From Rubripirellula sp. (lineage in GTDB: Bacteria; Planctomycetota; Planctomycetia; Pirellulales; Pirellulaceae): DNA of 64,000 bases. The stretch's first letter is position 1. Each line of letters opens with the position of its first letter. The DNA lies in contig OZ244207.1 of NCBI GenBank assembly GCA_965216875.1, positions 1,536,001 to 1,600,000 on the forward strand. The letters are read 5' to 3'. The position numbers and the translations under genes are program-made. This document shows positions 41,589-44,896 of the stretch, piece by piece. The notes beneath the pieces are model-generated. The model did not search any database, had not been told where the DNA came from, and saw only the letters and a list, made by a program, of their open reading frames with translations.

Positions 41589-43601
41589 ATGGCTGCAGGC
41601 GAATCGGCAATACCAGGTCATGACCGCTTTCTAGAAGACTGCCTATTCCGCAGCATGGGCAGCGAGCGCTACACGCAAAACTCGCCAATCATGCCTGGTG
41701 TTTGGATGCAGTATCGAAACGCGGGTAGCGAAAACGTCGAGCTTCTTTTTACAGCACACCGAGACAGCAATCCCGGCGAGCTCGCGCGGATTATTCGTCA
41801 GCGTTTGCAAACCTTCCGGACACGGAACGGGGAAAAGAAGCCTTCGACACCGGTGATCGCCTACAACGAGACTTCGGTTGTGGCGGAAATGTCCTTTGAC
41901 GAAATGATCCTCGTCGCTCTGCCACTTTCAAAATGGTGGGCGAAGTACGTTTTCCCAAGCGCTGAAGCGAAACAGAGTTTCGAGGAACACGTTGACCAGT
42001 ATCGAGACGATCTCGTTGCCGCACTGGAGGCGATCCGTCTGCAAATGTACGAGGGCGAGCGGCCAACCAAAAGCAAGACTTCAAAAGATCAATCGTCGTC
42101 CGAGACCAATGTGATTTCAGCCAACCTCACTTGGATGACGCTCATGGTGGGTGTCATTCGAGCAGGAATGCCATCGGGTTCGAATTGGGACGAGGCCTAC
42201 TCGGGGACGATCGCGGACAGTTTTCTCGAGCTGATGAGAGAACATCTCGCAGACTCAGAATCGACGGGCTACCTGCTTTGGAGCATCAATCCGAATCGCC
42301 GGAGCGAACCGACGCTGTATCGTTCTGTCAAAACGGTCAAGGCGGACGCGACCCAAACGTTGTTCGATGTGCGCGGCGAGAGGATACGCTGGGCGGTGAT
42401 CGATAGTGGCATCGACGCGCGACATTTTGCGTTCCGAAAAAGGGACCACAAGGGACGTGCCCTTGGGCCCAAGATCAACGGCCGCACTGCCGCGGCCGAG
42501 TTCAGTGATTTTGGGATGCCTCTGTTTGCGCCCGAAGATGAGAAGTTGCAGGGCGCGTTCGTTAAGAAATCACGGACTCGCTGGACGAACCAAACACGTA
42601 TCGTTCGGTCGTTCGACTTTCAACGAATGCGTGAAATCCTGAGCGCGTCGAGTCCGACCGAGTTGCCTGAAGGATTGGAAAAGAAAGCGAAGAAAGCTGG
42701 GATTCGTCAAGAACTCAAACTCGCTCTTAAACACAACCGAGTGCTTGATTGGGAATTGCTTGAGCCGCTGCTTGAAATCACTCACGACGATGAATACGAG
42801 CCGCCGACCCATCATCACGGCACACATGTTGCCGGGATCATTGGCGCAGATTGGCGCGAAGGCGAACATTCGCAAAGTCCAGAGGGCACGCGCTCTGGCG
42901 TGGCACCTGCGATCGAGATCTATGACCTCAGAGCACTCGATCAGAATGGCGTGGGCGACGAGTTTTCGATTCTCGCCGCGATGCAGTACGTGCGTAGCTT
43001 GAACGCTCGCAACAATCAAATGCAGATTCATGGAGTCAATATCAGCATCTCGATTCTGCACGCGGTTGCCGCCTACGGATGCGGACGCACGCCCATTTGC
43101 AACGAAGCCGAACGGCTGGTCGGTTCCGGCGTGGTTGTGGTCGCTGCGGCCGGCAACCGTGGACGCAGCATCTACACAACCACCGCAAATACTCAAGATG
43201 AAGGCTACCGCGATATCAGCATCACCGACCCAGGAAATGCCGAAGCGGTGATTACGGTTGGTTCAACCCATCGATACAAACCTCATAGCTACGGCGTCAG
43301 CTACTTTTCCAGTCGCGGTCCGACGGGCGATGGGCGCATCAAACCCGACCTCGTTGCACCAGGCGAAAAGATCTACTCGACCATTCCAAACAACGACGAG
43401 AAAGAGCTCGACGGGACAAGCATGGCCGCGCCGCATGTCAGTGGTGCGGCCGCCTTGCTGATGCAGCGTCACAACGAGCTGATCGGCCAACCGGAACGCA
43501 TCAAAGAGATCCTGTGCGACTCCGCGACCGACTTGGGACGCGAACGCTATTTCCAAGGTGCCGGCATGCTCGACATCTTACGTGCGTTGCAATCCGTCTG
43601 A
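41589..43601 (+). CDS. S8 (subtilisin-like) serine peptidase with no signal peptide and a long N-terminal extension
   Basis: Catalytic triad AVIDSG, HGTHVAGII, GTSMAAPHVSG; oxyanion AAAGN; FSSRGPTGDGRIKPDLVAPG. Confidence 0.95.
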   Translation: MAAGESAIPGHDRFLEDCLFRSMGSERYTQNSPIMPGVWMQYRNAGSENVELLFTAHRDSNPGELARIIRQRLQTFRTRNGEKKPSTPVIAYNETSVVAEMSFDEMILVALPLSKWWAKYVFPSAEAKQSFEEHVDQYRDDLVAALEAIRLQMYEGERPTKSKTSKDQSSSETNVISANLTWMTLMVGVIRAGMPSGSNWDEAYSGTIADSFLELMREHLADSESTGYLLWSINPNRRSEPTLYRSVKTVKADATQTLFDVRGERIRWAVIDSGIDARHFAFRKRDHKGRALGPKINGRTAAAEFSDFGMPLFAPEDEKLQGAFVKKSRTRWTNQTRIVRSFDFQRMREILSASSPTELPEGLEKKAKKAGIRQELKLALKHNRVLDWELLEPLLEITHDDEYEPPTHHHGTHVAGIIGADWREGEHSQSPEGTRSGVAPAIEIYDLRALDQNGVGDEFSILAAMQYVRSLNARNNQMQIHGVNISISILHAVAAYGCGRTPICNEAERLVGSGVVVVAAAGNRGRSIYTTTANTQDEGYRDISITDPGNAEAVITVGSTHRYKPHSYGVSYFSSRGPTGDGRIKPDLVAPGEKIYSTIPNNDEKELDGTSMAAPHVSGAAALLMQRHNELIGQPERIKEILCDSATDLGRERYFQGAGMLDILRALQSV

Positions 43602-43651
43602 GCCTATCTCGAACAATCATCTCACTCGCAGAACAATTGGGGAGTTCTAAC

Positions 43652-44896
43652 ATGGTCTTCAAACTCGAAGCGGTCTATGCGTTTCATGGCGACTCGCTGC
43701 TTTTGCACTATGGGTCTGACGATCCGCATCCAAGCTTGATCATGATCGACGGCGGCGCTAGGGGAACGTATCGCAACTTTCTCAAGCCGCGACTTGAGGA
43801 ACTGCAAGATCAGTGGGACGTCGATACCTTGCCGATGAAGATGATCATGGTGAGCCACACCGATTCGGATCACATCGCCGGCGTGCTCGATCTTTTTAAG
43901 GAACTGAAAAACAACGATGGCGAACCGCCAATCTGTCAAGCGGAAACACTGTGGCACAATGCATTTGATGACGTGATCGGGAACGACGACGAGGAGTTGA
44001 TTTCGAATTTGGTCGCTGATCCAGGCGATGTCGATCACGATGAGCGACCCGATCATGAGATTGAGGCGGTTGTCGCAAGCGTCAAGCAGGGGCGGGATCT
44101 GCGGATCGACGCGTCAACCTTGGCGATGAATATTAATCACCCTTTCACCAAACCTGATGGGACGGCGGGGCTCGTTCTGGCAAAGAATGCCCTCATCGAC
44201 CAAGGCGAAGAGCTGACGTTTCAAGTCCTTGGGCCAAACGAAAAGTTGGTCGCCAAGTACCAAGAAAAGTGGAACAAGTTTCTCAAAGACAAAGGACTCG
44301 CCGAAGCTCAGGCGGCATCGTTCAAGGACCCTTCGGCTTTCAATTTGGCCAGCATCGTCGTGCTTGCCAAACTCAACAATCGAACGATGTTGTTGACCGG
44401 TGATGCACGGGGAGACTTTATCGTCAACGGTCTCGTAGACGCCGGGCTGCTTGAGGAGGAATCGCGGTATCCGCTCAAAGAAGACCACGGTCGACGTTGG
44501 CGAGCCAAGGTTCGCGAAGCTGAAGCACGCGAGATCACCAAGCCGCTTCACGTTGACCTGATGAAGATGCCGCACCATGGCAGTGCGAACAATGTTGAGC
44601 GTGGCTTCTTCAAGCGAGTCACCGCCGATCATTATCTCTTTTCGGGAAATGGAAATCATCACAATCCCGATCCCGCAACGTTGCGGATGATCGCAGCCGC
44701 TCGCGGCGAGGATAAGTACACGGTTCATTTCACGGTCGCAAAGGACCAGCACGAGACAGAACGCAACGACAAGTTTGCTCGCGCGTTGGAAGAGCTGCGT
44801 CACTGGGTCACCGACGAGAAACCGGACAATTGCACGGTCAAGTATCGTGGCAAGCACCAACGCTCGATCACGGTTGATCTTTCCGACGACGAATGA
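43652..44896 (+). CDS. Soluble MBL-fold metallo-hydrolase (ComEC/Rec2 / Avs1a-like)
   Basis: HGDSLLL, IDGG, SHTDSDHIAG, NLASIV, LLTGDA, MKMPHHGS, SGNGNHHNP; GGAG RBS; no TM or signal peptide. Confidence 0.88.
   Translation: MVFKLEAVYAFHGDSLLLHYGSDDPHPSLIMIDGGARGTYRNFLKPRLEELQDQWDVDTLPMKMIMVSHTDSDHIAGVLDLFKELKNNDGEPPICQAETLWHNAFDDVIGNDDEELISNLVADPGDVDHDERPDHEIEAVVASVKQGRDLRIDASTLAMNINHPFTKPDGTAGLVLAKNALIDQGEELTFQVLGPNEKLVAKYQEKWNKFLKDKGLAEAQAASFKDPSAFNLASIVVLAKLNNRTMLLTGDARGDFIVNGLVDAGLLEEESRYPLKEDHGRRWRAKVREAEAREITKPLHVDLMKMPHHGSANNVERGFFKRVTADHYLFSGNGNHHNPDPATLRMIAAARGEDKYTVHFTVAKDQHETERNDKFARALEELRHWVTDEKPDNCTVKYRGKHQRSITVDLSDDE

Follow-up and report, generated by a model that had tools for sequence, protein, structure and literature searches.

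An adjacent subtilase and MBL-fold hydrolase form a probable protease-gated nuclease with a candidate role in antiphage defence

Results

A subtilase gene and an MBL gene lie side by side in Rubripirellula

We analysed a window, that is, the whole stretch of 64,000 nucleotides from Rubripirellula sp. (assembly GCA_965216875.1, contig OZ244207.1, positions 1,536,001 to 1,600,000), in which a subtilase (S8) gene is followed on the same strand by a gene for an MBL-fold hydrolase, with 50 nt between the S8 stop and the MBL start (table 1). The pair is flanked by a carbonic anhydrase gene (Pro_CA), a membrane ORF that matches no family with confidence and a sulfatase gene, so that the coordinates and flanks agree with the original prediction of two co-oriented genes 50 nt apart between unrelated genes. 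None of the three flanking genes is conserved as a neighbour in 160 related loci, and we rejected them as parts of a system. Neither mobile-element ends nor repeats nor a GC anomaly mark the pair, and we found no excess of promoters or terminators and no element-bounding repeats around the locus, and no defence genes flanking this copy; GC and GC3 of the window are ordinary. In an empty-site test, the sulfatase orthologues of two congeners had unrelated flanks, the carbonic anhydrase being elsewhere or unmatched there, and a search for the S8 in two congeners did not find it.

Table 1. Features of the S8–MBL locus; positions are those of the window and residues those of the respective protein.
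Feature	Residues	Position	Strand	Remarks
S8 subtilase gene		41589..43601	+	670 aa, predicted pro-enzyme; PF00082 E 3.9e-43
Predicted propeptide	~27-241	41667..42311	+	Tk-SP/subtilisin-type beta-alpha-beta-beta-alpha-beta core (AF2 secondary structure)
Variable helical insert in propeptide	~115-225	41931..42263	+	helices H115-H217
Predicted propeptide/mature junction	~239-244	42303..42320	+	T242/L243 most likely
Catalytic subtilase domain		42321..43598	+	D272 (42402), H413 (42825), N523, S611 (43419)
MBL-fold hydrolase gene		43652 (ATG)..44896	+	414 aa, ComEC/Avs1a-like, predicted pro-nuclease
Predicted gating loop 1	108-142	43973..44092	+	ends in predicted cut site A142/S143-V-K-Q-G
Short predicted gating loop 2	208-225	44273..44329	+	candidate cut site A222/S223 before D226-x-S-x-x-N
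Charged MBL insert	~268-297	44453..44542	+	confined to some lineages; unlikely to be a gate

The two genes form a conserved module

Related loci were found by an alignment-based scan of GTDB contigs, a single-protein scan having given none. The original prediction had proposed a neighbourhood analysis for co-occurrence, and adjacency was indeed kept: an MBL lies directly downstream of the S8 in 70 of 80 related S8 loci, and an S8 directly upstream of the MBL in 68 of 80 related MBL loci. Nine of the 12 remaining MBL loci have the C-terminal tail of an S8 at the contig edge, which places an S8 beside the MBL in 77/80, the other three being unresolved at contig ends. Given enough upstream sequence, no MBL of this clade lacked an S8 among the 80 loci. 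The median gap between the genes is 18.5 nt. The S8 and the MBL are thus a conserved module, with an adjacency far beyond chance. The pair occurs sporadically in at least 12 phyla and is patchy within the phylum of the window's genome (4/301 genomes). Across 96 non-redundant pairs the distances of the two proteins are correlated (rho 0.71, against a maximum of 0.17 in permutations), although such co-divergence is expected of any genes that move together. Deeper MBL branches adjoin two other S8 subfamilies, so that S8 proteases are recurrent partners. Beside the pair no sensor gene is conserved, be it an NLR, a helicase or another kind, and longer, sensor-fused S8 relatives were absent at E 1e-50 among 8000 candidates, which is weak evidence.

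The subtilase resembles a pro-subtilisin

The catalytic triad of the S8, described as intact in the original prediction, is present and conserved in related S8s (D272 and S611 in 110/110, H413 in 109/110), as is the oxyanion residue N523 (110/110). The predicted absence of a signal peptide is borne out by the first 45 residues, which hold no hydrophobic stretch (maximum Kyte–Doolittle 11-mer 0.45). The long Asp-to-His spacing is real as well, although it measures 140 rather than about 130 residues; an insert of about 110 aa lies within it. T546 sits at the inferred S1 floor. This residue is Thr, Ala or Ser in all 103 MBL-paired S8s and Val or Met in four of six S8s without an MBL, the latter reflecting at most two independent events, and we infer that the protease prefers small P1 residues.

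The first 250 or so residues, originally taken for an unrecognised region, superpose on subtilisin propeptides instead. The pro-forms 3afg, 2z2z and 3whi align with the S8 model from residue 27–48, whereas mature forms align from 247–249. For 3afg the match has Z 31.4 and an rmsd of 3.1 over 357 aligned residues (model 27–670); pro-Tk-subtilisin aligns over 333–339 residues, against 267–271 for its mature forms. The Atlas lead for the N-terminus was the CspB prodomain (0.86), and no Pfam prodomain family matched any of 64 S8 members. Modelling thus predicts that a propeptide fold packs against the catalytic domain as in pro-subtilisin, the last propeptide strand (238–241) lying as a substrate-like strand in the AF2 model. 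Column 242, at the predicted junction, is Ala, Ser or Thr in 105 of 110 S8s, within a register that is uncertain by 2–3 residues. Within the propeptide, the helical insert of about 110 aa has a mean column conservation of 0.23, compared with 0.44–0.53 in the propeptide core, and the span from W117 to W231 varies from 65 to 172 aa across 64 S8 homologues. We regard this insert as a candidate trigger or lock.

The MBL is related to gated DNases and carries two candidate gates

The motifs SHTDSDH, GDA and KMPHHGS, by which the original prediction had assigned the MBL to the ComEC type, are present, and the residues H69, D71, D73, H74, D251, H308 and H309 are invariant in 149/149 related MBLs. Its closest PADLOC profiles are LmuA-MBL (148 bits) and Avs1a (91 bits), as expected from the proposed tie to protease-paired defence nucleases; the NCBIfam Avs1a model gave 127 bits, below its cut-off of 420. 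By sequence, the MBL matches gated DNases at E 1e-44 to 1e-26 and the phosphorylcholine esterase Pce or ComEC at 1e-7 to 5e-3. Foldseek searches with the model (pLDDT 92) placed Pce on top (2bib, E 1.1e-11), level with ComEC (9ic4, E 4.9e-11); a search by sequence for a solved structure of a gated MBL found none. In a FastTree tree of 80 rows, which includes only three outgroup rows and carries a warning of long-branch joins at its base, the S8-paired MBLs lie on one side of a branch of support 100 and the Avs1a, NACHT-linked and CHAT-linked MBLs on the other.

Two internal parts of the MBL model, and only these, are of low confidence, and they are the likely gates: loops 108–142 and 208–225, each with a conserved Ala site. 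In loop 1, where pLDDT is low at residues 111–140, A142 aligns with the Ile that precedes G/S-x-K-Q-G in two trypsin-clade MBLs and is Ala in 137/149 MBLs. At the known cut position, Ile thus gives way to Ala as the class of the protease changes, and alignment with the Avs1a cut motif suggests that the MBL is cut at A142/S143. A second cut may fall at A222/S223, ahead of an invariant D226-x-S-x-x-N and within a dip in pLDDT at residues 211–230; the position is Ala in 125/149 MBLs, with a hydrophobic P2 in 138/149. Loop 2 spans 18 aa between W207 and D226 (mostly 16–26 in the family, 59–61 in Avs1a-type MBLs). Because it is so short, A222/S223 has no positional match to the long-form Avs1a site and rests on motif likeness. 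Both sites are Ala in 117/149 MBLs, against a background of 9.5%. These alanines could also be structural, since both sites are helical in the model (H135–156 and H218–223) and four further Ala columns are conserved in the MBL.

The charged insert between GDA and PHHGS, which the original prediction offered as a possible autoinhibitory element, does exist, but probably not in that role. It is present in 22 of 66 aligned homologues (absent from 44) and in one of the 149 locus MBLs (absent from 148), and it is confidently folded in the model (pLDDT 88–98). Being absent from most homologues and confidently folded, it is unlikely to be autoinhibitory, and we rejected it as the gate.

Helical cut sites would also suit a reading in which the S8 is a common intracellular protease that matures itself and does not gate the MBL, the two genes being linked as a convenient operon. 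The propeptide and catalytic domain of the S8 do resemble AprX/Tk-SP-like proteases, and the MBL is missing beside the S8 in 7 of 80 S8 loci, four of five such genomes searched having no MBL match elsewhere. Against this stand the S8 neighbour in 77 of 80 MBL loci, the recurrence of the partnership on deeper MBL branches with two other S8 subfamilies, and the Ile-to-Ala switch that follows protease class. We consider a convenient operon very improbable, and the pair likely to be a protease-gated nuclease.

Defence genes and lipases near the pair

The defence-island context of the pair is sparse. Its immediate neighbours are mostly housekeeping genes, and non-exhaustive, uncontrolled scans placed recognisable defence genes near seven of 80 GTDB loci. 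Defence genes are nearby in two of three S8–MBL plasmid loci examined, and some copies abut Pycsar, Septu PtuB or SIR2 genes, or a TIR/TPR-S gene accompanied by a CHAT-like gene and another MBL.

Patatin and Tle1-like lipases are themselves enzymes of the effector type. In 24 of 160 loci a patatin of one tight subfamily is encoded no more than 300 nt from the pair, which makes it a frequent optional third gene, and a Tle1-like lipase adjoins the pair in five of 160. Patatin was rejected as an obligatory part: one genome (G205) has the pair without a patatin, another (G262) has the patatin without this S8, and it occurs elsewhere in one of five other pair-bearing genomes. The genome of the window holds a rare patatin of the same subfamily 234 kb away from the pair.

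Such neighbours, together with Pce as the top Foldseek match, would fit an MBL that is matured by the subtilase and acts as a Pce-like phosphoesterase on lipids or small molecules alongside the lipases. We judge this very unlikely: the MBL is far closer in sequence to gated DNases than to Pce or ComEC, it has the site-1 motif in common with Avs1a, and the lipases are optional.

The same proteolytic switch could instead serve cell death under stress or during development, or the recycling of DNA, among bacteria of soils and sediments. Housekeeping neighbours, the lack of a conserved sensor gene and the ordinary GC and GC3 of the window are in line with such an output. Stress roles for modules of this kind are raised by Evans et al. 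(PMC12642450), and subtilases with a retained propeptide gate non-immune zymogens, as CspB does SleC (PMC3567191). The sporadic occurrence of the pair, in at least 12 phyla and in 4/301 genomes of the phylum, nevertheless agrees less well with a developmental programme than with mobile defence genes; copies have Pycsar, Septu, SIR2 and TIR genes as neighbours, and the characterised relatives are all antiphage. A stress or developmental output therefore seems unlikely to us, and antiphage abortive infection is probably the job of the protease-gated nuclease.

Discussion

A proposed mechanism

We propose that the S8 is a cytoplasmic subtilase held shut by its own propeptide, which would be self-cleaved near T242/L243 and retained as in CspB. 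Release of the propeptide would free the subtilase to cut the MBL twice, at A142/S143 and A222/S223, and the twice-cut MBL would become a DNase that probably kills the phage-infected cell. As the pair has no conserved sensor gene at its side (NLR, helicase or other), the propeptide's variable helical insert may itself sense the trigger; this is the most speculative step. Taken as a whole, the account from propeptide-held subtilase through two Ala loops to DNase and death of the infected cell is, in our view, rather likely. A more doubtful extension makes the S8 a sensor-free executioner protease: its retained propeptide, with the rapidly varying helical insert, would be the tripwire, which some factor of the phage cuts or pushes aside, and the freed Ala-specific protease would activate several death effectors, among them the MBL DNase and in some cases a patatin or a Tle1-like phospholipase; that the distant patatin of the same subfamily is among its optional targets is just as tentative. 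How a two-gene system without a sensor ATPase is triggered is the question raised here, and a propeptide that acts as the sensor would, if true, gate bacterial immunity in a new manner.

Comparison with known systems

IetAS, in which the S8 protease IetS/IteS works with an AAA ATPase, likewise has a cytoplasmic S8 in a defence-type module. We rejected membership: NF042956 gave 28 bits against 900 and PADLOC IetS 39 bits, and no AAA ATPase neighbours the pair. AVAST type 1 was rejected on the Avs1a score (127 bits against 420) and on the absence of a trypsin–STAND NTPase gene beside the pair.

Protease activation of such MBLs has been demonstrated for trypsin and caspase partners (PMC12642450, PMC12799240, bioRxiv 10.1101/2025.09.03.673762). 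Trypsin–MBL modules comprise AVAST type 1 Avs1a, Hachiman HamM and Lamassu-MBL (Tuck et al. 2025, PMC12799240; bioRxiv 10.1101/2025.09.03.673762; Evans et al.). The protease-gated HamM, Avs1a and CanC have two insertions relative to ComEC, with conserved cut sites; against these, loop 1 and site 1 of the window's MBL are in register, while loop 2 is short and site 2 motif-based. The trypsin systems share with our pair the MBL family, the metal ligands, loop 1 and the S-x-x-Q-G after the first cut, which is a predicted one in our pair; gating by two loops, as in those systems, is putative here, and short-loop forms with a small P1 exist among them as a precedent. Their trypsin, however, is part of a fusion with a sensor (NLR, helicase or SMC) and lies downstream of the MBL, whereas here a stand-alone S8 pro-enzyme lies upstream; the predicted P1 is Ala here rather than Ile or Ser, and loop 2 is short. 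Canu (caspase-nuclease; Tuck et al. 2025) is alike in having a stand-alone protease upstream of a gated MBL and no classical sensor ATPase, but it uses a caspase with Ig-like/TPR domains, CanB and Gly at the predicted sites, in contrast to the propeptide-bearing subtilase and lack of a conserved third gene in our pair.

Clostridial CspB–SleC offers a model for how the S8 could be held off: CspB keeps its propeptide, which obstructs an otherwise competent active site, and CspB activates the zymogen SleC (PMC3567191). That system serves germination rather than defence and CspB has a jellyroll insert; the S8 may retain its propeptide in like manner.

The closest described group is Clade 3 of the protease-gated MBL nucleases, the S8-adjacent MBLs of Evans et al. 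2025 (PMC12642450), so that the pair is not undescribed, as the original prediction had it. In the available text, Clade 3 is treated in two sentences and a figure legend that ascribe to it 'distinct sensor associations', and we found no experiment on it there; a literature search for experiments on any S8–MBL pair also found none. Our pair fits that description as a protease-associated MBL family with a conserved adjacent S8 subtilisin-like protease, and in the FastTree tree (three outgroup rows, long-branch warning) its MBL falls on a separate branch from the MBLs linked to trypsins and caspases. Propeptide gating, the Ala sites and a patatin partner go beyond the description as available. 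Trypsin- and caspase-gated MBL nucleases have been worked out, while the subtilase-linked branch has been named, our search finding no test of it; the locus and its relatives give exact predictions for it (the propeptide junction, two Ala sites, the S1 residue and a dispensable insert), through which this branch becomes directly testable.

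Conservation of the S8-MBL pair

The pair consists of a cytoplasmic subtilase (S8, 670 aa) and a ComEC/Avs1a-like MBL-fold hydrolase (MBL, 414 aa), each encoded by a single gene copy in the genome. The coordinates and spacing of the two genes (table) agreed with the original prediction, as did their unrelated flanks, a carbonic anhydrase and a membrane ORF on one side and a sulfatase on the other. Their composition is that of their neighbours (GC 0.55, GC3 0.63-0.64), and the genes of the window as a whole look planctomycete-like. The catalytic residues D272/H413/N523/S611 are present and no hydrophobic leader was found in the S8 N-terminus, in line with the claimed intact triad and missing signal peptide; the ComEC-type MBL motifs (HxDxDH, GD and HHGS) were likewise all there.

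Features and loci discussed in the text
Feature	Location	Remarks
S8 subtilase gene	41589-43601	intact active-site residues
MBL-fold gene	43652-44896	50 nt from S8 gene
Direct repeats	window:46443-46526	two of 36 nt, 94% alike, 48 nt apart, between sulfatase and glyoxalase-like genes
Convergent ORFs	window:47147-49446	repeat-type ORF (DWLED motif) converging on 496-aa ORF (PcfJ-like); both names presumed
Patatin of the same genome (L183, L190)	G000:C1:1342623-1343726	234 kb from pair
SIR2/ThsA-like gene	L030	near GTDB pair
TPR-S gene	L032	near GTDB pair
Defence-type run	L034:6811-16048	TIR gene, S8, MBL, TPR-S/MAP3K-TRAF-binding gene, CHAT-like gene (by eye), second canu-like MBL
PtuB gene	L045	near GTDB pair
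TIR effector gene	L060	near GTDB pair
DUF4231 gene	L064	which we take to be SLATT
PtuA and ThsB-like genes	L067	near GTDB pair
Plasmid pair (Methylorubrum pCMU01, cultured host)	L174:2567-9242	immediately 3' of Pycsar cyclase-E2-TIR operon
Family S8 without MBL	L074:10002-13916	followed by 1304-aa protein; by eye, two trypsin-like regions and C-terminal nuclease-like region

The predicted co-occurrence was borne out by gene neighbourhoods. Fifteen same-sized contigs were common to the best 119 S8 and the best 119 MBL homologues, in matching rank (rho 0.87). Scanning GTDB with the S8 alignment gave 568 loci, and among the best 80 of these an MBL lay directly downstream in 70 and across an apparent frameshift in 1; 7 have no MBL beside the S8, and 2 stopped at a contig edge. 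The MBL alignment found 554 metagenome loci; an S8 lay directly upstream in 68 of the best 80, and the other 12 begin at most 213 nt from a contig end, with the S8 C-terminal tail visible in 9. Both sets were built from exact peptide patterns of our own alignments and therefore describe only this subfamily. Twelve named phyla are represented among the 71 paired GTDB loci, most of which belong to Acidobacteriota (22), Pseudomonadota (19) and Actinomycetota (11). Over 96 pairs, the distances between S8s correlate with those between their MBLs (rho 0.71); this is evidence of co-inheritance rather than of function. The S8-MBL pair is a real, widespread module.

Its distribution is patchy, with the pair in one of 40 relatives and no S8 match in the two congeners searched. 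An MBL of this kind occurs in 4 of the 301 genomes of the phylum, two adjoining this S8 subfamily and two other S8 types. Deep-branching MBLs of the same clade (L167, L175, L168) adjoin two other S8 subfamilies and differ at the residues of predicted cut site 1 (A142|S143), so the MBL has swapped its S8 partner more than once.

The MBL and its predicted gates

Profile searches grouped the MBL with defence MBLs (LmuA-MBL, RT-associated MBL and Avs1a), below the Avs1a cut-off. Its model (pLDDT 92) matched Pce and ComEC, and all metal ligands are invariant in 149/149 locus MBLs, a set with near-duplicates. The original prediction allowed for an autoinhibitory insert and named a charged one (residues 268-297 here). 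This insert occurs in 22/66 aligned homologues and 1/149 locus MBLs and is confidently folded in the model, so we rejected it as an unlikely gate.

According to the accessible text of two studies, the site in HamM, Avs1a and VcMBL is blocked by two insertions, with cleavage after Ile (PMC12799240; PMC12642450); short-loop gated forms are described, in the accessible part of another, as cleaved after Ser (10.1101/2025.09.03.673762). The Ile preceding G/S-x-K-Q-G in two plasmid trypsin-clade MBLs aligns onto A142, at the end of loop 1 (108-142). This column is Ala in 137/149 locus MBLs, followed by Ser in 133/149. A similar motif ends loop 2 (208-225; candidate site 2, A222|S223), with Ala222 in 125/149. 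Ala stands at both positions in 117/149, against a background of 9.5%, and P2 is hydrophobic in 144/149 at site 1 and 138/149 at site 2. The two loops are the sole internal low-confidence stretches of the model. Three observations count against their reading as gates: loop 2 has 18 aa here versus 59-61 in Avs1a types, the model places both predicted sites in helices, and Ala is conserved in another four columns as well.

The S8 propeptide and specificity

The S8 N-terminus had been described as unrecognised; structure comparison instead fits it to subtilisin propeptides. In the model (pLDDT 79, pTM 0.87) its strands and helices (50-56, 62-79, 90-92, 96-101, 103-113, 230-235; strand 238-241) are interrupted by a helical block (115-217). 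Pro-enzymes topped the comparison, with ProN-Tk-SP aligned over residues 27-670 (Z 31.4, rmsd 3.1, 357 residues). The alignments of pro-Tk-subtilisin and of pro-subtilisin E begin at residue 48 and cover 325-339 residues, whereas those of mature forms begin only at 247-249 (245-272 residues). Since pro-enzymes align into this region and mature forms do not, the model identifies it as a propeptide docked in the usual place. Its helical insert of about 110 aa is poorly conserved (0.23). A language-model search gave the CspB prodomain (0.86) as a lead only, and a Pfam search of S8 for a prodomain had no match. There is a precedent in CspB, a subtilase that activates a zymogen and is itself gated by a propeptide that stays bound (PMC3567191).

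The predicted propeptide/mature junction falls at about 239-244, and column 242 is Ala/Ser/Thr in 105/110 S8s. T546 precedes a D-P-G that aligns with subtilisin Y-P-G and should therefore equal Gly166, the S1 floor, where a bulkier residue favours a small P1. Residue 546 is Thr/Ala/Ser in 103/103 MBL-paired S8s and Val/Met in 4/6 unpaired ones, three of those four being related genomes. Specificity for small residues is predicted.

A search for longer, fused S8 relatives found none at E 1e-50 among 8000 candidates. A sister S8 subfamily (L003, L004; genomes G028, G017) has the same CG-x-x-P-x-C motif and, by eye, an alpha/beta-hydrolase, fused in L003 and 3' of the S8 in L004. From these loci, this protease type may serve further zymogen effectors.

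Neighbours and optional partners

A Pfam scan of 148 genes directly flanking the pair returned mostly housekeeping genes; all but one of these 148 belong to the 80 GTDB loci, and the 95 neighbours at the metagenome loci lay outside the scan. Combined with PADLOC, run on a non-random set of 117 hand-picked neighbours, it placed defence-type genes near 7/80 GTDB loci (table). Of three plasmid loci examined, one lies 3' of a complete Pycsar operon, between an integrase and IS21, the second amid FRG, SIR2 and another MBL, and the third amid housekeeping genes. No conserved sensor gene was found beside the pair among the 160 loci. Actinobacterial copies (L012, L013, L016, L021, L023) share a co-oriented gene of about 410 aa downstream of the MBL (cluster 31), with no Pfam match at E 1e-8.

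A patatin recurs in 27/160 loci on either side of the pair, at most 300 nt away in 24, of which 20 are co-oriented. It is present in 13/71 loci with both flanks and scattered on the tree (21 changes over 85 labelled rows); a Tle1-like lipase adjoins the pair in 5 loci. The patatin is optional, not obligatory. The patatin of the window's own genome, 49-56% identical to pair-adjacent ones elsewhere and of a subfamily found in 2/301 genomes of the phylum, is possibly a detached third effector.

Proposed mechanism and relation to known systems

The most likely mechanism, which we judge rather probable as a whole chain, would start with release of the propeptide from S8, followed by two cuts in the MBL at the predicted Ala sites, indiscriminate DNA degradation by the cleaved MBL and abortive infection.

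The pair had been put forward as undescribed, but an S8-linked MBL clade is already named in the accessible text of Evans et al., which divides protease-associated MBLs into three clades with trypsin-like, caspase-like and S8 subtilisin-like partners and gives experiments for the trypsin-like clade only (PMC12642450). The experiments of Tuck et al. concern the caspase branch, and their text mentions that nucleases also occur with 'other diverse' families of protease (PMC12799240). Our literature search found no experimental study of the S8-MBL pair. The module is thus known in print, as far as that text goes; added here are the recognition of a propeptide in the S8, a corrected position for the predicted gates, a predicted specificity for small residues and a patatin as optional partner. 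Membership of AVAST-1 was rejected because the MBL falls below the Avs1a cut-off, and that of IetAS was also rejected. On the features examined, and as Clade 3 is described in the available text of Evans et al., the pair is a member of that clade, and it probably works in the manner of the protease-gated MBL systems HamM, Avs1a and Canu.
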